IMG/VR virus record: IMGVR_UViG_2740892422_000005
Strand: one strand, 5' to 3'
Source of the DNA: a virus
Lineage: Duplodnaviria > Heunggongvirae > Uroviricota > Caudoviricetes
Length of the DNA: 30,250 bases
In this document: positions 4,385 through 24,254 of the stretch, piece after piece
Layout of the letters: every line of letters begins with the position of its first letter
How positions within the stretch are numbered: the first letter of the stretch is position 1
Position numbers and translations under genes: made by a program
The notes under the pieces: model-generated
The model's database searches: none
Told to the model about the DNA's origin: nothing
The model's input: the letters and a program-made list of their open reading frames with translations, nothing else

Positions 4385-4390
4385 TATAAT
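4385..4390 (+). promoter_or_regulatory. Candidate -10 hexamer TATAAT upstream of trkG (second TATAAT at 4357-4362)
   Basis: Two perfect TATAAT hexamers in the AT-rich spacer between Rz and trkG. No clear -35. Confidence 0.25.
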
Positions 4391-4407
4391 TGAAAGAATA
4401 TTTAGAT

Positions 4408-5865
4408 ATGAATACATCTCATGTAAGAGTTGTTACTCATATGTGTGGGTTCTTGGTTTGGCTTTATAGTCTTTCAATGTTGCCACCAATGGTTGTAGCA
4501 TTGTTTTATAAAGAAAAAAGCCTGTTCGTTTTCTTTATAACTTTCGTTATATTTTTTTGCATTGGTGGCGGAGCGTGGTATACAACTAAGAAATCTGGCA
4601 TTCAATTACGTACCCGTGATGGGTTTATTATAATTGTAATGTTTTGGATTTTGTTTTCTGTTATTAGTGCATTCCCTTTATGGATTGACTCAGAACTTAA
4701 TTTAACGTTCATTGATGCTCTGTTTGAAGGGGTTTCTGGAATAACAACAACAGGAGCAACTGTAATTGATGATGTTAGTTCATTACCTCGGGCATATTTG
4801 TACTATCGGTCACAGTTAAATTTTATAGGTGGTTTAGGAGTTATTGTTCTGGCGGTTGCAGTATTGCCATTATTGGGTATTGGTGGTGCAAAGCTTTATC
4901 AGTCAGAAATGCCGGGGCCATTTAAGGATGACAAACTCACTCCCCGCCTGGCCGATACGTCACGGACACTGTGGATAACTTATTCTTTATTAGGTATTGC
5001 TTGTATTGTCTGTTATAGACTTGCAGGAATGCCTTTGTTTGATGCTATTTGTCACGGGATTTCCACAGTTTCGCTTGGTGGTTTCTCAACTCATAGCGAG
5101 AGTATCGGATATTTTAATAACTATTTGGTTGAGCTGGTGGCTGGTTCTTTTTCCCTGCTATCGGCTTTCAACTTCACTCTTTGGTATATTGTTATTAGCA
5201 GAAAAACGATAAAACCTTTAATCAGAGATATTGAACTTCGTTTCTTTCTGTTAATAGCCTTAGGGGTGATCATTGTTACCTCTTTCCAGGTCTGGCATAT
5301 AGGTATGTATGACTTGCATGGAAGTTTTATTCATTCGTTTTTTCTTGCCAGCTCCATGCTCACTGATAATGGTTTAGCTACGCAGGATTATGCAAACTGG
5401 CCCACGCACACGATAGTGTTTTTGCTGTTGTCAAGTTTCTTTGGGGGATGTATAGGTTCAACCTGTGGTGGAATTAAGTCACTTCGATTTCTTATACTTT
5501 TCAAACAAAGCAAACACGAGATAAATCAGCTTTCTCATCCCAGAGCGTTGTTGAGTGTAAATGTAGGAGGGAAGATAGTTACAGATCGTGTAATGAGGTC
5601 TGTATGGAGTTTCTTTTTTCTTTATACTCTCTTCACGGTGTTTTTTATACTGGTGTTAAATGGTATGGGATATGATTTTCTTACATCATTTGCAACAGTG
5701 GCTGCATGTATTAATAATATGGGATTAGGTTTTGGGGCTACTGCATCGTCATTCGGAGTGCTTAATGACATTGCAAAGTATTTAATGTGCATAGCTATGA
5801 TTCTTGGTCGCCTTGAAATTTATCCTGTTATTATATTGTTTTCAGGTTTTTTTTGGCGCTCCTAA
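4408..5865 (+). CDS. trkG: TrkG/TrkH-family potassium uptake membrane protein (485 aa)
   Basis: Polytopic membrane protein with repeated selectivity-filter-like Gly motifs (GVSGITTTGATV, SLGGFSTHS, GLGFGATA). Matches, from memory, the Rac-prophage TrkG starting MNTSHVRVVTH, so the ATG at 4408 is preferred over the TTG at 4390. Strongly AT-rich compared with flanking phage genes. Confidence 0.9.
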   Translation: MNTSHVRVVTHMCGFLVWLYSLSMLPPMVVALFYKEKSLFVFFITFVIFFCIGGGAWYTTKKSGIQLRTRDGFIIIVMFWILFSVISAFPLWIDSELNLTFIDALFEGVSGITTTGATVIDDVSSLPRAYLYYRSQLNFIGGLGVIVLAVAVLPLLGIGGAKLYQSEMPGPFKDDKLTPRLADTSRTLWITYSLLGIACIVCYRLAGMPLFDAICHGISTVSLGGFSTHSESIGYFNNYLVELVAGSFSLLSAFNFTLWYIVISRKTIKPLIRDIELRFFLLIALGVIIVTSFQVWHIGMYDLHGSFIHSFFLASSMLTDNGLATQDYANWPTHTIVFLLLSSFFGGCIGSTCGGIKSLRFLILFKQSKHEINQLSHPRALLSVNVGGKIVTDRVMRSVWSFFFLYTLFTVFFILVLNGMGYDFLTSFATVAACINNMGLGFGATASSFGVLNDIAKYLMCIAMILGRLEIYPVIILFSGFFWRS

Positions 5866-6002: not shown

Positions 6003-6794
6003 ATGAGCGAGAAATTAAAGATAGTCTATCGCCCATTACAAGAATTGTCACCGTATGCGCACAACGCCAGGACGCACAGCCCTGAGCAGGTGGCACAACT
6101 GGTAGAAAGTATTAAGCAATTCGGCTGGACTAATCCGGTGCTGATTGACGAAAAGGGCGAAATTATTGCGGGTCACGGTCGTGTTATGGCGGCTGAAATG
6201 CTCAAAATGGATTCTGTTCCGGTCATTGTTCTGTCTGGCCTGACGGATGAGCAGAAAAAGGCGTACCGCCTGGCAGATAATCGCCTGCCGATGAATGCTG
6301 GCTGGGATGAAGATCTGTTGCGGATGGAGCTGTCGGACCTAATCAATGCTGATTTTGATGTCTCCCTGACAGGCTTCATCCCGACAGAAATTGATGAACT
6401 GTTGACGGATGTTTTGCCCGGTACAGGAAATGAGGAGGAGCCGTATACGACGAAAATTGATACGCCTGTTTATGAGCCGTCGGGCGGTAAACCGGATATC
6501 AGTGAACTGTACGACGATACGAAAACTCAGGAGCTGATCAGCCGGATACGTTCGGCGTCCCTTGAGCCTGATATTGAGAAATTCCTCCTGTGTGCGGCAG
6601 AACGTCACACGGTGTTTAATTTCAGCAGAATTGCGGACTATTACGCTCACGCCCCCGCTGAAATTCAGTGTTTTTTCGAGGAGTCGGCGCTGGTGATCAT
6701 TGATTATCAGCAGGCTATTGAAAATGGATTTGTCCGGATGACGCAGCGCATGGTGGAGATCATGCATGGTGGTGAGGAGGAGGAATATGCGTGA
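6003..6794 (+). CDS. ParB-like nuclease-domain (ParB/sulfiredoxin fold) protein with acidic C-terminus (263 aa)
   Basis: N-terminal motif IIAGHGRVMAA and surrounding sequence are typical of the ParB N-terminal domain. C-terminus ends GGEEEEYA. The N-terminus resembles the Rac ynaK fragment as I recall it. Confidence 0.7.
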   Translation: MSEKLKIVYRPLQELSPYAHNARTHSPEQVAQLVESIKQFGWTNPVLIDEKGEIIAGHGRVMAAEMLKMDSVPVIVLSGLTDEQKKAYRLADNRLPMNAGWDEDLLRMELSDLINADFDVSLTGFIPTEIDELLTDVLPGTGNEEEPYTTKIDTPVYEPSGGKPDISELYDDTKTQELISRIRSASLEPDIEKFLLCAAERHTVFNFSRIADYYAHAPAEIQCFFEESALVIIDYQQAIENGFVRMTQRMVEIMHGGEEEEYA

Positions 6795-7719
6795 TGATTT
6801 TTGCGCCTTTATTCTGACTCACGGGCGACCAGACAAAGTTCTGACTTACCGGACGTTGCGTCGTGCTGGCTATACCGGGAAAATTTTTATCGTTGTTGAT
6901 GATGAAGATAAGACACGGCATCAGTACATGGCTGAATTTGGTGAACAGGTGCTGGTGTTTTCCAAAGCCGATATCGCCAGTCGTTTTGACGAAGCCGATA
7001 ATTTCTGTGACCGCCGCTCAATTTTTTACGCCCGTAATGCCTGTTTTGACCTGGCAAAACTGGTCGGGTGTAAATACTTCATTCAGCTCGATGATGATTA
7101 TCACGAGTTCCAGTTTCGGGTGGATCGCAACTATGACCAGGCCTATTTTCCGATAAGGAAACTGGATGCGATCCTTTCTGAAATGCTGGCGTACTACGAA
7201 TCAATACCTGCTCTTTCCATCGCTATGTCGCAGGGCGGGGATTTTCTTGGTGACAATGGCGGCCATGCTTCGTGGGTGAAACGCAAGGCAATGAACAGCT
7301 TTATCTGTTCGGTTGATCGACCGTTCTCATTCATGGGGCGCATTAACGAGGATGTGAATACGTACACGAATCTCGGTCGCTGTGGTGAATTGTTTATGAC
7401 GATCGGTGCTGTCCAGTTAGGGCAGAAACAGACGCAGAAAAACAGCGGCGGAATGACCGAGCTGTATCTGGATTCCGGAACCTACGTTAAAAGTTTTTAC
7501 TCCGTCATGTATGCGCCGTCGTGCGTAAAAATTTCACTGATGGGTGCCAGCCATAAACGCATTCACCATCAGGTCACCTGGAACAACGCTGCAGTAAAAA
7601 TCCTTCACGAAAAATACAGGAAGAAGACACCCTGCATATCAATGGGGGTGACAAATGATTCCGTATTCGAAAGTCGAGTCTCTGGCAGCGTGCCGGATGA
7701 CTGCACAACAAATCGCTGA
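6787..7719 (+). CDS. GT-A-fold glycosyltransferase-like protein with DxD motif (310 aa from ATG 6787)
   Basis: Start ATG 6787 follows RBS GGAGGAGGA and overlaps the ParB-like stop. Has FILTHGRPDK (strand 1), IVVDDEDK and QLDDDY (DxD) in GT-A order. No TM segments. Substrate unknown. Confidence 0.5.
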   Translation: MRDDFCAFILTHGRPDKVLTYRTLRRAGYTGKIFIVVDDEDKTRHQYMAEFGEQVLVFSKADIASRFDEADNFCDRRSIFYARNACFDLAKLVGCKYFIQLDDDYHEFQFRVDRNYDQAYFPIRKLDAILSEMLAYYESIPALSIAMSQGGDFLGDNGGHASWVKRKAMNSFICSVDRPFSFMGRINEDVNTYTNLGRCGELFMTIGAVQLGQKQTQKNSGGMTELYLDSGTYVKSFYSVMYAPSCVKISLMGASHKRIHHQVTWNNAAVKILHEKYRKKTPCISMGVTNDSVFESRVSGSVPDDCTTNR

Positions 7720-7906
7720 CGTTCTGGATGTTGATCTGAACCGACTGAAAGAAAATCGGGAAGCAATGACAGATTTTTATGCGGCCATCCGTAAGGGCAG
7801 AGCGAAAGGTGAAGCCGAGTTACGAGCGGCATTGTTTAAGCTTGCCAGAAAAGGGGATGCCTTTGCTCTGCGCGAACTACTCAGGGTGGATAAAAATCAG
7901 GACTAA
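7655..7906 (+). CDS. Small phage protein (83 aa), possible HTH DNA-binding, packaging-associated
   Basis: ATG 7655 follows RBS GGGGGTG. Overlaps the 3' end of the GT-A-like gene by 65 nt in another frame. Basic and helical (AAIRKGRAKGEAELRAALFKLARKG). Lies just upstream of the terminase genes. Confidence 0.4.
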   Translation: MIPYSKVESLAACRMTAQQIADVLDVDLNRLKENREAMTDFYAAIRKGRAKGEAELRAALFKLARKGDAFALRELLRVDKNQD

Positions 7907-7909
7907 CTG

Positions 7910-9004
7910 ATGAGCAGACCGGACTGGGGGGCGTTGCAGCAGGAGTATATTGCTGAATACACCCGCTCCGGTATATCTCCGGTGGCATGGTGTGAAGCAA
8001 GGGGACTGAATTACGCAACAGCCCGTCGTTACATCAAAAAAACTCCGAAAAATGCGCAGACAGAAATGCGCAAAACTGCGCAAAAAAGTGCGCAGAAAAA
8101 ATCTGCGCAGACTGCACAAAAGCGGAACGAAAAATCTCAGGAAAAAAAGCCAGTATTCGATGCGGGCCTGAATGAGGGCGACGCGGAGGAATTTTCGTTC
8201 TGTCCCGATGAATTCGGCATTTCTGACCAGCAGGCTAAGTTTGCGATGCTTGTTGCTCAGGGTAAAAAGCCGACAGAGGCGTACCGACTAGCCGGTTATG
8301 AGGGGCAAGGTGCGACAGCTAACAGCAACGCCAGTCGTATGCTTAGAAATGCCAGGGTTTTTCGCGCTATCAGCTACTTCCGCAATCAGTACCAGAAACG
8401 CTATACCGCAGACCTGGATTTACTAGTGAGTCAGTTGATGGCCATTGTCCTGGCCGACCCCAATCAACTTGCACAATTTCGCCGTGTTAACTGCCGTTAT
8501 TGCTGGGGCGAGAATCATCTCTACCAGTGGCGCGATATAGCAGAATTCGACAAGGCAGCGGCGCAGGCTTCCAGAGATGGCAAACCCGAACCGGAATATG
8601 GAGGCCTCGGCTTTGTTGATAACGCCATACCCAATCCGGACTGCCCGAAGTGCTGCGGTGAGGGAACGGGACAGCTTTATATGGCTGATACCACTCTGCT
8701 TGATGGGGATGCGCGGCAATTATATGCAGGGGCAAAATTCGGAAAATTCGGCGTTGAGATCCTGCTGGAGGATAAGGCTGCCGCCCGGCGTGAATTGTTG
8801 CGTTTGCTTTCTGCTGGCGGGGCTTTATGTGCAGATAAGCGGCTACAGGAACTGGAAATTGAACGGCGCAGAATGGAAAACCAGAAGCTGCGCAAAGAGA
8901 TCGAAACGGTGGAAGATAATGAACATCCCCAGCCCGTGGCGATCAAAATTAATGTGGTTGATGCCAGAGTAAGGAGTGATGAAGATGATCTCTCCGACGC
9001 TTAA
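7910..9004 (+). CDS. Putative terminase small subunit (N-terminal HTH, low-complexity AQK linker, C-terminal Cys4 zinc ribbon; 364 aa)
   Basis: Sits immediately upstream of and overlapping the large terminase. N-terminus GISPVAWCEARGLNYATARRYIKK is HTH-like. C-terminus has CRYC...CPKCC. A lysine-rich linker is encoded by the TGCGCA repeat array. Confidence 0.55.
   Translation: MSRPDWGALQQEYIAEYTRSGISPVAWCEARGLNYATARRYIKKTPKNAQTEMRKTAQKSAQKKSAQTAQKRNEKSQEKKPVFDAGLNEGDAEEFSFCPDEFGISDQQAKFAMLVAQGKKPTEAYRLAGYEGQGATANSNASRMLRNARVFRAISYFRNQYQKRYTADLDLLVSQLMAIVLADPNQLAQFRRVNCRYCWGENHLYQWRDIAEFDKAAAQASRDGKPEPEYGGLGFVDNAIPNPDCPKCCGEGTGQLYMADTTLLDGDARQLYAGAKFGKFGVEILLEDKAAARRELLRLLSAGGALCADKRLQELEIERRRMENQKLRKEIETVEDNEHPQPVAIKINVVDARVRSDEDDLSDA
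8053..8118 (+). repeat. Array of five perfect palindromic hexamers TGCGCA plus one TGCACA variant, spaced 10-15 bp, inside the putative small-terminase gene
   Basis: TGCGCA at 8053, 8067, 8077, 8089 and 8104; TGCACA at 8113. Extended consensus about AAAnTGCGCA(G/A)A. Candidate pac site by analogy to the P1 pac hexamer repeats in pacA. Confidence 0.4.
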
Positions 9005-10286
9005 TGTGCCTCAGGCGCGATTTCTTTCAATGCCCCATAAATTTAAAGCCTATATTGCTGGTTTTGGCTCGGGCAAAACATGGGTTGGGTGTGGCGGCAT
9101 ATGCAAGGGGATTTGGGAGCATCCAGGTATAAATCAGGGATATTTTGCGCCAACGTATCCCCAAATTCGCGATATTTTTTACCCTACAGTGGAAGAAGTT
9201 GCTGCTGACTGGGGATTGAACGTAAAAATTAATGAGGGAAATAAAGAGGTTCACTTTTATTACGGACGCCAGTATCGGGGAACCACTATCTGCAGATCGA
9301 TGGAGAAGCCACAAACGATCGTCGGTTTCAAAATTGGTAATGCGTTGGTGGATGAACTGGACATTTTGCCGAAGGAAAAAGCCAGAACGGCGTGGCGCAA
9401 GATAATTGCACGTATGCGTTATAAGATTGATGGACTTCGCAACGGTATTGACGTTACAACCACGCCGGAAGGATTCAAATTTGTCTACGAGCAGTTTGTT
9501 AAAGCCGTGCGTGAAAAAACAGAGCTGGCCTCACTGTATGGTCTGGTGCAGGCATCTACTTTCGATAATGAAAAGAACCTGCCAGCAGATTACATTCCTT
9601 CGCTTCTTGAATCATACCCTCCAGAGCTGATTAAAGCCTATCTTCGAGGACAGTTTACTAACCTGACAAGTGGTACTGTTTACCATCAGTTTGACCGGAA
9701 ACTGAATAATTGCGAAGAAGTGGAGCAGCCAGGGGAGCCGATTTATATTGGGATGGATTTTAACGTTGGAAAGATGGCGGGAATCGTCCATGTGCTGCGT
9801 TTGGGGCTTCCATGTGCGGTAACTGAAATCATCAATGCCTACGATACGCCGGATATGATCCGCATCATTAAAGAACGCTTCTGGCTGTATGATGGGAATG
9901 ATTACCGGAAAGTGAGGGAAATTTATATTTATCCAGATGCTTCCGGGGATTCCAGAAAATCAAGTAACGCAAGTACGACGGATATAGCCCAGCTTAAGCA
10001 GGCTGGTTTTAACGTTGTGGTGAACAGCTCGAACCCGCCAGTAAAAGATCGCGTTAACTCAATGAATGCAATGTTCTGCAATGCCAATGGTGAGCGTCGC
10101 TATAAAGTTAATGTGAAGCGTTGCCCGTTATATGCCGAATCTCTGGAGCAACAGGTCTGGGATGAGAAGGGGGAGCCTGATAAAAAATCTGGCAATGATC
10201 ACCCGAATGATGCCGGAGGTTATTTCATCGTTAAGCAATTCCCTATTGTCAAACCGACCGGAAGAGTCACATCACTTCGGATTTAA
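8985..10286 (+). CDS. Terminase large subunit (ATPase/nuclease)
   Basis: Walker A-like AYIAGFGSGKT near the N-terminus and acidic nuclease-type motifs toward the C-terminus. ATG 8985 lies 8 nt after RBS AAGGAG; the ORF-track start at 8976 is a GTG inside the RBS. Confidence 0.85.
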   Translation: MISPTLNVPQARFLSMPHKFKAYIAGFGSGKTWVGCGGICKGIWEHPGINQGYFAPTYPQIRDIFYPTVEEVAADWGLNVKINEGNKEVHFYYGRQYRGTTICRSMEKPQTIVGFKIGNALVDELDILPKEKARTAWRKIIARMRYKIDGLRNGIDVTTTPEGFKFVYEQFVKAVREKTELASLYGLVQASTFDNEKNLPADYIPSLLESYPPELIKAYLRGQFTNLTSGTVYHQFDRKLNNCEEVEQPGEPIYIGMDFNVGKMAGIVHVLRLGLPCAVTEIINAYDTPDMIRIIKERFWLYDGNDYRKVREIYIYPDASGDSRKSSNASTTDIAQLKQAGFNVVVNSSNPPVKDRVNSMNAMFCNANGERRYKVNVKRCPLYAESLEQQVWDEKGEPDKKSGNDHPNDAGGYFIVKQFPIVKPTGRVTSLRI

Positions 10287-10288
10287 TT

Positions 10289-11695
10289 ATGGCTGATATA
10301 TCAACACCCAACCTCGACTATAACGATATGCTGGAGGCGTGGGATATTAACGACGCACTGATGGGCGGTACGCTTGAAATGCGCAGGCAGGGGGAAAATT
10401 ATCTCCCAAAATGGCCTAACGAAGATGAAGACGCTTATAAAAAACGCCTGTCTGTGGCTACGCTACTTCCTGTGTATGAAGAAAGCATCAAGCAAAATAT
10501 TGGGCGCATATTTGCAGAGCCGACAGTATTGAGTGAGGAAACGCCGGCAAAAATCAGGGAATATGCAGAAAATATCGACATGGAGGGGAGCCGACTGGAT
10601 GTGTGGGCGCAGCAATTTTTCAGCCTCGCATTTCAGTATGGTGTGGCACATGCGCTGGTGGACTATCCACGAACGGATATGAAAGAGATTCGGACAAAAG
10701 CCGATGAAAACGCGACCGGTGGTCGTCCGTACGTTACGATGCTGAATCCACGCCAGGTTATTGGATGGAAATCGAAAGTTGAAAAAGGGAAAGTTGTTCT
10801 CACTGATTTGCGTATAAAAGAGGTCATCATTATTGATGGTGATGATTTCGGGCAGAAGAAGGTGGAGCAGATCCGCCATATTATGCCCCGTCGAGTTGAA
10901 ATTTATCGACGTAGCGAAGGCACTAATGGCGAATCTGTCTGGACGCTTCATGAGTCATGGAATACCAGCCGTGATGATATTCCTCTGGTAACACTGTACA
11001 CGAAGAAAACAGGATTTATGCGTGGTACACCGCCATTGCTTAATCTTGGCTTGCTGAATATCAAGCACTGGCAAAGCCAGAGCGAGCAGGACAATATTCT
11101 TCATGTTGCCCGCGTTCCATTACTGGTGGCCTACGGGCTGGACAGGAATGAAGAACTGACGGTTGGTGCATCCACCGCTACGATTTTTGAGGACAGAACA
11201 AAAAATGGCCTCGAATATGTTGAACATAGTGGCGCAGCGATAGAATCTGGCGAAACATCACTTGAGAAGCTGGAAAATCAGATGCGTCATGCCGGCGCTA
11301 AACTTCTGCGTGCTGAAAATACATCCACCAAATCTGTTGATCAGACTAATGAAGAGCGAATGCAGGAAAACTCGCCGCTTTATACAATGGCGAACTCCCT
11401 CGAAGATGCCCTCGATAATATTCTCCAGATAATGGCGGAATGGATCGGAGAGAGTTGCGGTGGCAATGTGGATGTGCGCACTGAACTGGATGTATCTGCC
11501 CAGGTGTTTGACTCATCCTCCGCGCTGGCTGTTCAGTCATTGCGTCAGGGCGGTGATATACGTCAGATTGATGCGGTTCGGGTGTTGCAGGCGTTGAAAT
11601 TTATCGATCAGGATTCCCGTCCAGAGGAAGTGATCGATGAATTAAAAAATCAGAGTGTAATGCTGATGGAAATCAATGATGCAAACCGTGAATGA
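10289..11695 (+). CDS. Portal protein (468 aa)
   Basis: Size and position directly after the large terminase, tightly coupled to neighbours. Acidic C-terminal region. Confidence 0.7.
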   Translation: MADISTPNLDYNDMLEAWDINDALMGGTLEMRRQGENYLPKWPNEDEDAYKKRLSVATLLPVYEESIKQNIGRIFAEPTVLSEETPAKIREYAENIDMEGSRLDVWAQQFFSLAFQYGVAHALVDYPRTDMKEIRTKADENATGGRPYVTMLNPRQVIGWKSKVEKGKVVLTDLRIKEVIIIDGDDFGQKKVEQIRHIMPRRVEIYRRSEGTNGESVWTLHESWNTSRDDIPLVTLYTKKTGFMRGTPPLLNLGLLNIKHWQSQSEQDNILHVARVPLLVAYGLDRNEELTVGASTATIFEDRTKNGLEYVEHSGAAIESGETSLEKLENQMRHAGAKLLRAENTSTKSVDQTNEERMQENSPLYTMANSLEDALDNILQIMAEWIGESCGGNVDVRTELDVSAQVFDSSSALAVQSLRQGGDIRQIDAVRVLQALKFIDQDSRPEEVIDELKNQSVMLMEINDANRE

Positions 11696-12791
11696 ACGGC
11701 TGCGTGATGAATCAATTGCTCATGCAGTCTGGATATCCCGCTATAGCACTGGCGTGGCTGCCAGAATGGTGAAAATACTGAATGACAGCGATGCGGAACT
11801 TACTGCTCGCCTGCTGATAGCACTGGACAGCCTCGATCCAGGTAGTTTTACCGTTAAGCGCCTGGAGTCACTTCTGGCGAGCGTCAGAGAGGTTAACCGC
11901 ACTGCTATTAACAGCATGTTTACCAGTCTCTCCGGAGAGCTGAACGAGCTGGCAATTTATGAGGCTGGTTATCAGTTAAGTCTGTTTGATTCTATGCTAC
12001 CTGATTTTGTTGCTGATGTTCACCCTCTGGTTGGTATCTCTCCTGATGCACTTTATGCCGCTGCAATGGCGCGACCATTCCAGGGACGACTGCTCAGTGA
12101 GTGGGCCTCAGATCTTGAAGCGGATCGGCTCAGACGCATAACAAATACAGTGCGTCAGGGTTTTTTGCTGGGGGATACCAATGAGCAGATCGCAAGAAAA
12201 ATTCGGGGACATGTCAGTAAGGGATTTCAGGATGGCGCATTGCAGATGAGCCGGGCTAATGCGGCCAGCATTGCAAAAACAGCGGTTGGACATCTTGCTG
12301 CTACTGCCCGTGAGAGTTTTGCCAGCGCGAATAATGATTTGATTAAGGGTAAGCAATGGTTATCAACGCTTGATAATCGTACTACGCCACAATGTCGAAT
12401 CAGGGATCGCCTCAAATATACGCTGAATAATAAACCTGTAGGTCACAGCGTGCCTTATTTGCAGGGGCCGGGAAAAATTCATTTCTGCTGCCGCTCAACG
12501 GAAACGTTCATTCTGAAATCAGCGAAGGAACTGGGTATTGATGTTCGCGATATTTCCCCGGCTGAGCGGGCCAGCATGGATGGCGTGGTGGCCGGAGATA
12601 CAACCTACAGGGAATGGTTTTTGCGTCAGCCTTACACCAGACAAAAACAGATTGTGGGGGAAACCCGAGCAAAGCTGATTCGGGATGGTGGTATGTCGCC
12701 AGATGAATTTTACACCGATAAAGGCGAATGGCTGACGCTGAAGCAGCTCCGTGAGCGTGATGCACAGGTATTCAGAAAAGCAGGGATTTAA
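11676..12791 (+). CDS. Head morphogenesis protein (Mu F / SPP1 gp7-like minor head protein)
   Basis: Follows the portal with an overlapping start. Conserved central region (GHLAATARESF...LDNRTTPQCRIRD) as in Mu F-like proteins. Confidence 0.65.
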   Translation: MMQTVNERLRDESIAHAVWISRYSTGVAARMVKILNDSDAELTARLLIALDSLDPGSFTVKRLESLLASVREVNRTAINSMFTSLSGELNELAIYEAGYQLSLFDSMLPDFVADVHPLVGISPDALYAAAMARPFQGRLLSEWASDLEADRLRRITNTVRQGFLLGDTNEQIARKIRGHVSKGFQDGALQMSRANAASIAKTAVGHLAATARESFASANNDLIKGKQWLSTLDNRTTPQCRIRDRLKYTLNNKPVGHSVPYLQGPGKIHFCCRSTETFILKSAKELGIDVRDISPAERASMDGVVAGDTTYREWFLRQPYTRQKQIVGETRAKLIRDGGMSPDEFYTDKGEWLTLKQLRERDAQVFRKAGI

Positions 12792-12810: not shown

Positions 12811-12836
12811 AGGCTACCTTCGGGTGGCCTTTTTTA
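12811..12836 (+). terminator. Intrinsic terminator-like hairpin (AGGCTACC-TTCG-GGTGGCCT + T6)
   Basis: 8-bp stem with one G-U pair, UUCG tetraloop and a T-run, right after the head morphogenesis stop. Confidence 0.5.
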
Positions 12837-12895
12837 TTGCTGCGATCCGGATGGTGAGCAGCGTAACTGTCGGAAGACTTAAACCAGGTACTAAT

Positions 12896-13660
12896 ATGAA
12901 ACTGAAAACGGTCGAGATTAACGGAAAACAATACGCAGAAATTGATACTGCTGGCCTGCCAGTTTATGTGCACGACGATGGTAAAGAAATTGGCTTCGAT
13001 GCACCGCTGGCGACAAAAAAAATTACAGAGCTTAATGGCGAGGCAAAAAATCATCGCCTGGCTAAAGAAGCTGCAGAGGAAAAACTGGCTAAGTTTGCCG
13101 CTATCGAAGACCCGAAGAAGGCGATCGAGGCACTGGAAATGCTGTCAAAAATCGACCAGAAAAAGCTGATCGATGCGGGACAGGTTGACCAGGTTAAGGC
13201 AGAAATTACGAAAAATTTTCAGCAGCAATTAGATGAAGAAAAGCAACGCTCTCAGATGCTGGAGAAGCAGCTTTACGATTCTATGATTGGCGGTAGTTTT
13301 GCGGGTTCAAAATATATTGCCGATAAAATTGCGATCCCGGCAGATTTATTACAAGCCCGCTTCGGGCAGGCATTCAAAGTGGAAGAAGGGAGGATCGTTG
13401 CTTATGACGCTTCCGGCAACAAAATTTATTCCCGCGCGAAGCCTGGCGAACTGGCGCAGTTTGATGAGGCGCTGGAGTTCCTTGTCGAAAATTACCCTCA
13501 GAAAGACTACATCCTGAAAGCCAGTGGCAACAATGGCGGCGGCTCCCGTCCGACACAGCATGATATTGGTCAGAAAACGATGAAACGCTCTGCTTTTGAT
13601 GCACTGGATGTTGCAGGTAAGCAAAACGCATTGAAAGACGGTATCACAATCGTTGATTAA
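12896..13660 (+). CDS. Putative scaffolding protein (254 aa from ATG 12896)
   Basis: Helical, charged, coiled-coil-like protein between the morphogenesis and capsid genes. The ORF-track start at 12824 would overlap the terminator hairpin, so the ATG at 12896 is preferred. Confidence 0.5.
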   Translation: MKLKTVEINGKQYAEIDTAGLPVYVHDDGKEIGFDAPLATKKITELNGEAKNHRLAKEAAEEKLAKFAAIEDPKKAIEALEMLSKIDQKKLIDAGQVDQVKAEITKNFQQQLDEEKQRSQMLEKQLYDSMIGGSFAGSKYIADKIAIPADLLQARFGQAFKVEEGRIVAYDASGNKIYSRAKPGELAQFDEALEFLVENYPQKDYILKASGNNGGGSRPTQHDIGQKTMKRSAFDALDVAGKQNALKDGITIVD

Positions 13661-22808: not shown

Positions 22809-23506
22809 TGCAGGATATTCCACAGGAAACACATCATGAGACGACACGCCTCACTCAGTCAGCCCAGGTGGTGCTCTGGGAAATCGATCTGACAGAGGTC
22901 GGTGGTGAACGTTATTTTTTCTGTAATGAGCAGAACGAAAAAGGTGAGCCAGTCACCTGGCAGGGGCGGCAGTATCAGGCATACCCCATTCAGGGGACGG
23001 GATTTGAACTGAACGGCAAGGGCAGTGCAGCCCGTCCGACACTGACGGTTTCTAACCTGCACGGCATGGTCACCGGGATGGCGGAAGACCTGCAGAGTCT
23101 GGTCGGCGGAATGGTGGTCAGGCGTAAGGTTTACGCCCGTTTTCTGGATGCGGTGAACTTCGTCAACGGAAACAGCGACGCCGATCCGGAGCAGGAGGTG
23201 ATCAGCCGCTGGCGCATCGAGCAGTGCAGCGAACTGAGTGCGGTCAGTGCCTCTTTTGTACTGTCCACGCCGACGGAAACGGATGGGGCCGTTTTTCCTG
23301 GGCGCATCATGCTGGCTAATACCTGCACCTGGACCTATCGCGGTGATGAGTGCGGTTATCACGGTCCGGCGGTCGCGGATGAATATGACCAGCCAACGTC
23401 CGATATCACGAAGGATAAATGCAGCAAATGCCTGAGCGGTTGTAAGTTTCGCAATAACCTCGGCAACTTTGGCGGCTTCTTTTCCATTAACAAACTTTCG
23501 CAGTAA
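22808..23506 (+). CDS. L: Minor tail protein L (Fe-S cysteine cluster)
   Basis: Near-identical to lambda gpL as I recall it (MQDI..., CSKCLSGCKF...). ATG 22808 overlaps the M stop (TGATG); the track's 22805 start is a TTG. Confidence 0.85.
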   Translation: MQDIPQETHHETTRLTQSAQVVLWEIDLTEVGGERYFFCNEQNEKGEPVTWQGRQYQAYPIQGTGFELNGKGSAARPTLTVSNLHGMVTGMAEDLQSLVGGMVVRRKVYARFLDAVNFVNGNSDADPEQEVISRWRIEQCSELSAVSASFVLSTPTETDGAVFPGRIMLANTCTWTYRGDECGYHGPAVADEYDQPTSDITKDKCSKCLSGCKFRNNLGNFGGFFSINKLSQ

Positions 23507-23510
23507 ATCC

Positions 23511-24254
23511 ATGACAGAGACAGAATCAGCGATTCTGGCGCACGCCCGGCGATGTGCGCCAGCGGAGTCGTGCGGCTTCGTGGTGAGAACACCGGAGGGA
23601 GAAAGATATTTTCCCTGCGTGAATATCTCCGGTGAGCCGGAGGATTATTTCCGGATGGCTCCGGAGGACTGGCTGCAGGCCAAAATGCAGGGTGAGATTG
23701 TGGCGCTGGTCCACAGCCACCCCGGTGGTCTGCCCTGGCTGAGTGAGGCCGACAGGCGGCTGCAGGTGCAGAGTGATTTGCCGTGGTGGCTGGTCTGCCG
23801 GGGGACGATTCATAAGTTCCGCTGTGTGCCGCATCTCACCGGGCGGCGCTTTGAGCACGGGGTGACGGACTGTTACACGCTGTTCCGGGATGCTTACCAT
23901 CTGGCGGGGATTGAGATGCCGGATTTTCATCGCAAGGATGACTGGTGGCGTCACGGGCAGAATCTCTATCTGGATAATCTGGAGGCCACAGGGCTGTATC
24001 AGGTGCCGTTGTCAGCGGCGCAGCCGGGCGATGTGCTGCTGTGCTGTTTTGGTTCATCGGTGCCGAATCATGCCGCTATTTACTGTGGTGACGGCGAGCT
24101 GCTGCACCATATTCCTGAACAACTGAGCAAACGAGAGAGGTATACCGACAAATGGCAGCGACGCACACACTCCCTCTGGCGTCACCGGGCATGGCACGCA
24201 TCTGCCTTTACGGGGATTTGCAACGATTTGGCCGCCGCATCGACCTTCGTGTGA
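23511..24254 (+). CDS. K: Tail tip assembly protein K (JAMM/MPN plus NlpC/P60 domains)
   Basis: MTETESAILAHARRC... with JAMM motif HSHPGGLPWLSEAD and NlpC/P60-type Cys and His. Very close to lambda K from memory. An internal in-frame Met (MAPEDW, about 23655) is an alternative start. Confidence 0.8.
   Translation: MTETESAILAHARRCAPAESCGFVVRTPEGERYFPCVNISGEPEDYFRMAPEDWLQAKMQGEIVALVHSHPGGLPWLSEADRRLQVQSDLPWWLVCRGTIHKFRCVPHLTGRRFEHGVTDCYTLFRDAYHLAGIEMPDFHRKDDWWRHGQNLYLDNLEATGLYQVPLSAAQPGDVLLCCFGSSVPNHAAIYCGDGELLHHIPEQLSKRERYTDKWQRRTHSLWRHRAWHASAFTGICNDLAAASTFV

Follow-up and report, generated by a model that had tools for sequence, protein, structure and literature searches.

A TGCGCA hexamer array inside the small-terminase gene of a lambdoid Escherichia coli prophage as a candidate packaging recognition element paired with an N-terminal terminase module

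Introduction

Here, we describe an array of the palindromic hexamer TGCGCA inside the small-terminase gene (terS) of a 30,250-nucleotide stretch of DNA (IMG/VR virus record IMGVR_UViG_2740892422_000005; hereafter, the window), which represents the late region of a trkG-carrying lambdoid Escherichia coli prophage, and evaluate it as a candidate packaging initiation site (pac). In phage P1, pac consists of multiple hexamer copies clustered inside pacA, the gene for the packaging recognition subunit; these hexamers (TGATCA/G) are arranged in two groups flanking the cut site and are subject to Dam (GATC) methylation control. In phage lambda, several short R sites of cosB lie next to or in the small-terminase gene and are read by the N-terminal winged helix-turn-helix (HTH) of gpNu1, which anchors terminase, and cohesive ends arise at cosN with a large terminase (TerL) of the GpA type. 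A location of pac inside terS, on which a first-pass annotation of the window had drawn for P22 and SPP1, is established for both phages (PMC9611059). In SPP1/SF6, pac overlaps the start of terS and contains short direct repeats, and the model is that many HTHs of one small-terminase (TerS) oligomer contact one DNA segment (PMC4737164, PMC9611059). Recognition in these phages is thought to be the selection of intrinsically bent DNA (PMC4737164). How pac-type small terminases pick their own DNA is a long-standing gap, and according to a 2022 review, the TerS proteins of P22, Sf6, SF6 and SPP1 bind pac weakly and largely without regard to sequence, in a way that is difficult to measure in vitro (PMC9611059).

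The window resembles each of these systems in some respects. SPP1/SF6 G1P and the window TerS belong to the same superfamily (Terminase_2), and in both an HTH is followed by an oligomerisation core. The window TerS differs in carrying an extra N-terminal module ahead of the canonical HTH, and its hexamers form a single cluster inside the open reading frame (ORF), whereas SPP1 pac is bipartite (pacL, pacC and pacR) and spans promoters. Unlike in SPP1/SF6, a strict covariation between motif and module (see below) points to base-specific reading. P22 is comparable as an enterobacterial temperate headful phage with its recognition site inside the small-terminase gene, the arrangement proposed here; however, P22 pac is one asymmetric 22-bp sequence in gene 3, not a repeat array (PMC9611059). 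In the E. coli LF82 prophage Gally, virion-read coverage peaks within terS (PMC9928086). Gally was considered as direct proof and rejected, as the 140-aa TerS encoded there is Sf6-like and unrelated to that of the window, and no repeat array is present; it serves as an analogy only. Neither the P22 nor the Gally TerS shows a sequence relation to the window TerS. The analogy with P1 drawn in the first-pass annotation holds for the overall architecture but not for its details: the window motif contains no GATC, no GATC (Dam site) occurs in or between the copies, and the copies form one group instead of a bipartite layout. With respect to lambda, the window TerL is a Terminase_6N/6C protein with Jerseyvirus-like relatives, one of which has been called headful (PMC9409062).

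Results and Discussion

Position and enrichment of the hexamer array

The exact TGCGCA copies start at positions 8053, 8067, 8077, 8089 and 8104, and a TGCACA starts at 8113. This confirmed the coordinates proposed in the first-pass annotation, i.e., five TGCGCA and one TGCACA within 66 bp (8053–8118); the array lies wholly inside the terS ORF (7910–9004), and terL starts at 8976. Some details required correction. The start-to-start spacings are 14, 10, 12, 15 and 9 bp, giving a range of 9–15 bp rather than 10–15 bp, and the context AAAnTGCGCA(G/A)A, previously ascribed to every copy, is strictly matched by copies 1, 3 and 4 only. Nor does every copy encode A-Q: copy 2 (8067) is read one frame off the others, as aTG CGC Aaa (M-R-K). 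The sixth copy is a perfect TGCGCA in many homologues, and the TGCACA of the window is therefore regarded as a degenerate copy. The assignment of the host gene to a 364-aa small terminase was supported by Pfam Terminase_2 (PF03592; 36 bits against a cut-off of 26.1, residues 122–321) and by a full-length match to phrog_51 'terminase small subunit' (E = 4e-76).

TGCGCA occurs 15 times across the window, with 14.5 occurrences expected by chance. The probability of five copies within 57 bp under a Poisson model was 1.5e-10 per span, or approximately 4e-6 after correction for all positions. Under a stricter null, in which the amino-acid sequence was fixed and codons were resampled according to the codon usage of the phage, the mean was 0.76 copies and the probability of at least five copies was 1e-4. 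The same pre-specified hexamer yielded P <= 5e-5 in each of five further independent diverged lineages by synonymous resampling. A search for a second TGCGCA-like cluster (up to one mismatch) within approximately 700 bp on either side of the array found none, i.e., no counterpart of SPP1-like pacL/pacR.

Selection on the hexamers as DNA

To compare homologues, terS loci were gathered from IMG/VR, GTDB genomes and GenBank phages, and the gene was located in 276 of them. The spacing, reading frame and adjoining residues of the copies all vary between homologues, while the hexamer sequence is kept. For example, the TerS of Serratia fonticola (53% protein identity) contains five TGCGCA copies at spacings different from those in the window, in reading frames 2,1,2,1,2 (window: 2,1,2,2,2). 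Klebsiella homologues keep the array even with a TerS core that is only ca. 40% identical; in Klebsiella phage ST846-OXA48phi9.2, six copies in frames 2,2,2,1,2,0 encode A-Q, L-R-T and C-A. Across lineages, the residues encoded by the copies are A-Q, M/L/V-R-x or C-A. The first-pass annotation had named conservation of the array at the DNA level among homologues as a check of its proposal, and these comparisons strongly bear out such conservation.

Codon choice was examined in 16 lineages selected for N-terminal domain DNA less than 93% identical. In these, 63 of the 66 A-Q pairs in the linker were spelled T-GCG-CA, compared with 14 of the 49 A-Q pairs outside the linker of these genes; among the remaining Ala codons, the share of GCG was 23%. 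At third codon positions of the adjoining N-terminal module, the lineages were 43%–62% identical to the window, which is near saturation. Moreover, sister families carry their repeated motif on both strands, which rules out a protein repeat as the explanation. Thus, selection acts on the hexamers at the level of the DNA. The earlier suggestion of constraint at both levels is upheld for the DNA; the constraint on the protein appears weak, given that any of the three frames is acceptable in the linker.

Many database TerS variants (P0011, P0018, P0021, P0022, P0025, P0027, P0030, P0035, P0037 and others) show a linker frame that shifts and later returns (e.g., KKLRKMRRQKCAKLRKKCAEK), with the hexamers intact. 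Most of these variants derive from read-archive assemblies, and the shifted linkers may reflect homopolymer errors in A-runs or real compensated frameshifts.

Covariation of motif and module and exchange as a cassette

Among 129 distinct 5' terS sequences, the type of N-terminal module (residues 1–44 in the window TerS; hereafter, N-module) predicts the most repeated linker hexamer without exception. Modules ending in ...TARRYIKK are accompanied by the palindromic TGCGCA (4–8 copies), those ending in ...AKRYIK(I/V) by TGCGAA(T), including the 12-bp palindrome TGCGAATTCGCA (4–7 copies), those ending in ...ALRYMAGKKGW by GGGGCA (4–6 copies) and those ending in ...SHT(T/A)INN.ARKEGW by GTGGAAAC (6–7 copies); the latter three motifs occur in both orientations. 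The TGCGCA and TGCGAA groups have related modules, and the only residues that separate the two groups, 39 (Arg versus Lys) and 44 (Lys/Arg versus Ile/Val), map to predicted helix 3 or to its end. In F116 and Bcep22, whose TerS proteins are relatives without the N-module, no clustered 6-mer above the shuffle level was found from -400 to +500 of the start codon; the same scan detected 5–6 clustered copies in the window, in pPE4 and in L278, a locus described below.

The pPE4 TerS has a core 94% identical to that of the window, an unrelated module and its own motif, and homology between the two begins at window position 8204. Conversely, Klebsiella phages combine the same module and a TGCGCA array with a different core (ca. 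40% identical). These sequence comparisons indicate that the array travels with the module in one exchangeable cassette, which comprises the N-module and the linker-coding segment. The link between the array and the small terminase is thus closer than had been proposed, since the motif covaries with an HTH-like N-terminal domain of TerS. In Rac-SA53 (L001, 2990–3060), a 'gpO-terS fusion by deletion' removed the N-module with a junction at hexamer 2, and three of the copies that remain carry unique mutations (TTCGCA, TGCGCT and TGCCCA). We take this as support, in that the array would have decayed once its reader was lost.

In E. coli CUWW10 (hit H84), homology to the window terS stops at gene nucleotide 145, which corresponds to the first hexamer. 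Given the junctions in Rac-SA53 and CUWW10, the hexamer repeats may be hot spots of recombination or deletion.

Structure and distribution of the N-terminal module

The full-length AlphaFold2 model of TerS was poor, with a mean predicted local distance difference test score (pLDDT) of 50; it contained three short helices in residues 6–42 and a confident helical region at 106–182, and residues 44–93 had pLDDT values below 50 and no secondary structure. When residues 1–51 were modelled alone, the mean pLDDT was 78, with helices at 6–20, 24–31 and 35–41. The best Foldseek matches of the N-module were nearly all HTH DNA-binding domains (DBDs), including DeoR-DBD with operator, Aca1, AraR-DBD, Tc3 transposase, Fis and sigma region 4, with template modelling (TM) scores of up to 0.63; none was significant (E >= 0.75). 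Sub-threshold sequence matches were obtained with IS66 TnpA HTH (E = 4e-5), HTH_29 and HTH_23, together with a weak match to the PHROG 'HTH DNA binding protein'; a sequence search of the PDB yielded spurious matches only and no relative. Based on these models and matches, the N-module is likely an HTH. In a PHROG search, it headed several different TerS families and was seen on no other kind of protein. It also occurs in many Klebsiella, Yersinia, Serratia and Erwinia prophages.

The canonical HTH region was modelled with pLDDT values of 76–87 and helices at 106–116, 121–127 and 134–146; it weakly matched the DNA-binding region of the Pam5 small terminase (21di_E), and phrog_641 matched residues 105–162. 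The Terminase_2 body also contains a long insertion at residues ca. 194–250 (8490–8660) with two Cys pairs (NCRYCWGE ... NPDCPKCCGEG; CxxC...CxxC). This insertion is invariant among relatives and conserved out to F116 and Bcep22 and looks like a zinc ribbon, although model confidence was low.

Distribution of TGCGCA arrays

IMG/VR was scanned for three closely spaced TGCGCA copies, and N-modules were called by a hidden Markov model; the matches listed comprised 121 arrays at 120 loci. Among the matches listed, 77 of the 121 arrays adjoin the N-module of the window type; the others consist of nine plain tandem repeats, 21 minimal three-copy arrays and 14 arrays with at least four copies. Two of these 14 are truncated copies of the N-module locus, and one (L278) lies in another HTH-TerS. 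The latter locus (1982–2584) encodes a 200-aa ORF, followed by a TerL-sized ORF, with a different N-terminal HTH (...SNRQIAKKHGVAESTLRKRIASGGW) and six TGCGCA copies in the linker. Hence, one hexamer can pair with more than one type of module.

Two more of these 14 arrays, with 5–6 TGCGCA copies each, were observed in L360 (1892–1960) and L388 (9752–9830). Both are intergenic, in low-GC (35%–37%) phage contigs, with no adjacent terS, and flank genes common to both contigs that have similar N-termini (MESISIDDYRAM... and MESISLDAYRKM...). These arrays may be operator sites for an unrelated regulator. In L325, an 11.5-kb contig with a P4-type integrase element, groups of four and then two TGCGCA copies (10006–10166) lie just outside a tRNA-like attachment (att) boundary. 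L325 was considered as a satellite with a pac mimic, but this was rejected because the array lies beyond that boundary and thus cannot be assigned to the element.

Mode of packaging

Several lines of homology bear on whether packaging is headful or of the cos type. The window TerL is not of the lambda (GpA) type. Among named phages, its nearest relatives are the TerLs of Jerseyvirus and K1G-like phages, with 42%–51% identity across 97% of the window protein; the Jerseyvirus SeF1 has been called headful by PhageTerm (PMC9409062). The TerS core is homologous (36% identity) to those of F116 and the F116-like phage phiC725A, which are circularly permuted (PMC5217972). In phiC725A, the maximum of virion-read coverage starts at position 23,500 (PMC5217972), and this position falls within the tblastn match to terS (23,221–23,766). 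In addition, a gene for a Mu-F/gp7-like head protein follows the portal gene. Taken together, the TerL relatives, F116/phiC725A and the Mu-F/gp7-like protein favour headful packaging. The earlier preference for headful over lambda-like cos packaging is accordingly backed by homology, particularly by the relation of TerL to Jerseyvirus and by the phiC725A coverage maximum inside a homologous terS.

Proposed mechanism

We consider it probable that the N-terminal domains of an oligomeric TerS, held on tethers, have the array as their cognate binding site and that the array acts as the specificity element of a headful pac. We infer from the sequence comparisons that the N-module physically binds the hexamers and that this binding starts packaging. 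Small terminases of the Terminase_2 superfamily form rings that display HTHs (PMC4737164, PMC9611059). In the proposed mechanism, each TerS subunit would present an extra sequence-reading module (residues 1–44) on a flexible, lysine-rich tether of approximately 50 residues ahead of the Terminase_2 body, and the DNA encoding this tether would hold five or six copies of the module's own cognate hexamer. Several tethered modules of one oligomer could then bind several hexamers (66 bp) simultaneously, so that specificity would arise from multivalency. The bound TerS would recruit TerL, encoded immediately downstream, followed by a cut nearby and unidirectional headful packaging.

Such a mechanism could account for several features of the array. 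The irregular, unconserved spacing (9–15 bp) would be possible because the tethers are flexible, and single copies could be lost (TGTGCA at copy 2, TGCGCG at copy 4 and TGCACA at copy 6) because binding is multivalent. The linker tolerates frame changes because TGCGCA yields linker-compatible residues in all three frames; therefore, out-of-frame copies such as that at 8067 could arise and persist.

A number of observations weigh against this interpretation. In SF6/SPP1, which are the relatives studied most thoroughly, the contacts of the TerS HTH with pac DNA are weak and lack specificity, and binding does not depend on the box repeats (PMC4737164). The Sf6-like terS of Gally has no repeated motif around its mapped peak, showing that mapped pac regions need no repeats. 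The occurrence of TGCGCA arrays beside a different HTH (L278) and in unrelated intergenic DNA (L360 and L388) means that the mapping between motif and module is not one-to-one, and one evolutionary event probably underlies the Arg/Lys covariation. Within E. coli, single copies are polymorphic (at least 23 loci have TGTGCA as copy 2, and ca. 20 have TGCGCG as copy 4), and the copy number varies. The HTH call for the N-module is statistically weak, with Foldseek E >= 0.75, sub-threshold Pfam/NCBIfam matches and no sequence relative in the PDB. The segment 8035–8135 folds as RNA at -31.7 kcal/mol, compared with -16.0 kcal/mol for shuffled sequences (z = -6.3). Finally, no report on packaging or termini was found in the literature on near-identical phages (vB_EcoS-473R12 series and SPF_0923) or in that on Yersinia vB_YenM phages, Klebsiella prophages and Rac-SA53. 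The literature search also found no footprints or genetics for N-module phages, and TGCGCA was not met in a packaging context.

Alternative explanations

The N-module might bind the hexamers for a purpose other than packaging, for example to autoregulate terS/terL expression or to keep freshly synthesised TerS at the template that encodes it. The covariation and conservation point to a sequence-specific reader tied to the N-module and are silent on events after binding, and a protein bound at sites within the coding region could block transcription or translation. However, genome recognition for packaging is the sole established role of DNA binding by TerS (PMC9611059). That the N-module headed several unrelated TerS families and no other kind of protein in the PHROG search also argues against another purpose, and roadblock autoregulation leaves the upkeep of five to eight sites unexplained. 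We therefore consider this explanation unlikely.

A role of the repeats as RNA, in which self-complementary or inverted copies form hairpins in the terS mRNA and tune translation or stability, would agree with the strong folding of the window array, and other TGCGCA-type arrays also fold better than expected (z = -2.4 to -4.4). Such folding is a consequence of the motif, since any repeated palindrome must fold. Non-palindromic arrays mostly lack unusual structure (z = -1.2 and -1.6 for the Yersinia type; z = -0.7 and -1.7 for two of three GGGGCA arrays), and RNA structure was thus rejected as a general explanation. In addition, direct copies outnumber inverted ones (e.g., ++++-), and the 12-bp palindrome of the TGCGAA(T) class leaves no room for a loop. 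An RNA helix would permit compensatory changes, whereas the exact hexamer is kept despite near-saturated synonymous sites and tracks the type of protein domain. An RNA role accordingly appears highly unlikely.

Slightly less probable again is a different factor that binds or modifies the hexamers; candidates include a nucleoid protein of the host, a regulator of the phage, and the ParB-like protein and glycosyltransferase whose genes lie just upstream. The intergenic arrays of L360 and L388 in other phages, outside terS, and the presence of ParB_N and TAGT-family glycosyltransferase genes at 6003–7719 are compatible with this possibility. It is disfavoured by phages of Klebsiella, Serratia and Yersinia, in which the array still accompanies the TerS N-module although the upstream genes differ, and by the switching of the motif with the module even on a 94%-identical core.

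The least probable of the four is that replication slippage duplicated a K-x-A-Q coding unit and left a DNA repeat without a function of its own: the linker is Lys/Ala/Gln-rich and predicted to be disordered, copy-number variants in L067–L069 are compatible with slippage, and deletion or recombination junctions lie at the array in Rac-SA53 and CUWW10, but spacers that differ in length and sequence show that the copies are not tandem duplicates, and this explanation is contradicted by the different frames of the copies, the use of both strands in sister families, the fixed synonymous positions within the hexamers (63/66) next to near-saturated neighbours and the excess over synonymous resampling in five independent lineages, as well as by the switching of the motif with the type of N-module.

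Genomic context

The features of the window are summarised in Table 1. Positions 7600–10300 match Salmonella phage SPF_0923 and a series of E. coli prophage records at 99.7%–99.9% identity. The 5' end of terL overlaps the 3' end of terS. The TrkG/TrkH-type gene is prophage cargo beside the late genes. The ParB_N and TAGT genes overlap each other and immediately precede the packaging genes. The pair may constitute a module for DNA modification, although no TET or hydroxymethylase gene was seen near it. The 83-codon ORF that precedes terS corresponds to the central part of another small-terminase family, phrog_309 (positions 145–218 of 319, E = 8e-23), and had no match in Pfam or NCBIfam. This ORF could be what is left of a terS that was displaced, or it could encode a small accessory protein for packaging.

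Table 1. Positions of terS, the hexamer array and neighbouring features in the window
Feature	Position	Strand	Basis
TrkG/TrkH-type (trkG) potassium-uptake gene	4390–5865	+	called TrkG in near-identical phage SPF_0923
ParB_N-domain gene	6003–6794	+	phrog_620; N-terminal part also matches phage DNA-methyltransferase family phrog_498
TAGT (TET-associated glycosyltransferase) family gene	6766–7719	+	Pfam TAGT, E = 4e-35; phrog_842 'beta-glucosyl-HMC-alpha-glucosyltransferase'
83-codon ORF, ends 4 bp before terS	7655–7906	+	phrog_309 match
terS, small terminase subunit, 364 aa	7910–9004	+	Pfam Terminase_2; phrog_51
N-terminal three-helix HTH-like module, residues 1–44	7910–8041	+	AlphaFold2, Foldseek, weak sequence matches
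Linker-coding segment, residues 45–98, Lys/Ala/Gln-rich, predicted disordered	8042–8203	+	pLDDT; limit of homology to pPE4
Array of five TGCGCA and a degenerate TGCACA, proposed TerS recognition element of pac	8053–8118	.	enrichment, DNA-level conservation, reverse scan
Canonical Terminase_2 HTH region, residues ~103–150	8216–8359	+	AlphaFold2 helices; phrog_641; 21di_E
terL, large terminase	8976–10286	+	Pfam Terminase_6N (E = 4e-33) and Terminase_6C; phrog_2, phrog_10250
Portal	10289–11695	+	Pfam DUF4055; phrog_145 portal, E = 4e-165
Mu F / SPP1 gp7-like head-morphogenesis protein	11676–12791	+	Pfam Phage_Mu_F; phrog_241, E = 3e-183
Scaffold-like gene	12824–13660

Significance

No prior description of a TGCGCA array in terS was found in the literature searched. 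Although pac inside terS was already known, the window differs from SPP1/SF6 in its single intragenic array, its extra reading module and the strict covariation of motif and module. More generally, the terS genes of many proteobacterial temperate phages may carry a portable specificity cassette, consisting of an extra HTH and a tether whose DNA is its own site array, such that a swap would reprogram which DNA is packaged according to a simple residue-base code (e.g., Arg39-TGCGCA, Lys39-TGCGAAT). We regard the arguments for and against this broader proposal as evenly balanced. If true, it would represent base-specific, multivalent recognition of pac, unlike the non-specific, bend-selecting mode of SPP1/SF6.

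The family offers a testable case, with a small separable domain and a defined hexamer. Natural specificity variants are available in the form of four motif classes and an Arg/Lys switch, and cassettes have also been swapped in nature between cores that are almost identical. The N-module is also common: the first 301 bases of terS are found in 883 of 5,426 complete E. coli genomes, in which the gene is labelled terminase small subunit. A known packaging start and direction would allow prediction of the chromosomal flank mobilised by lateral transduction, annotation of pac from sequence alone and the design of packageable cargo for phage-based delivery.

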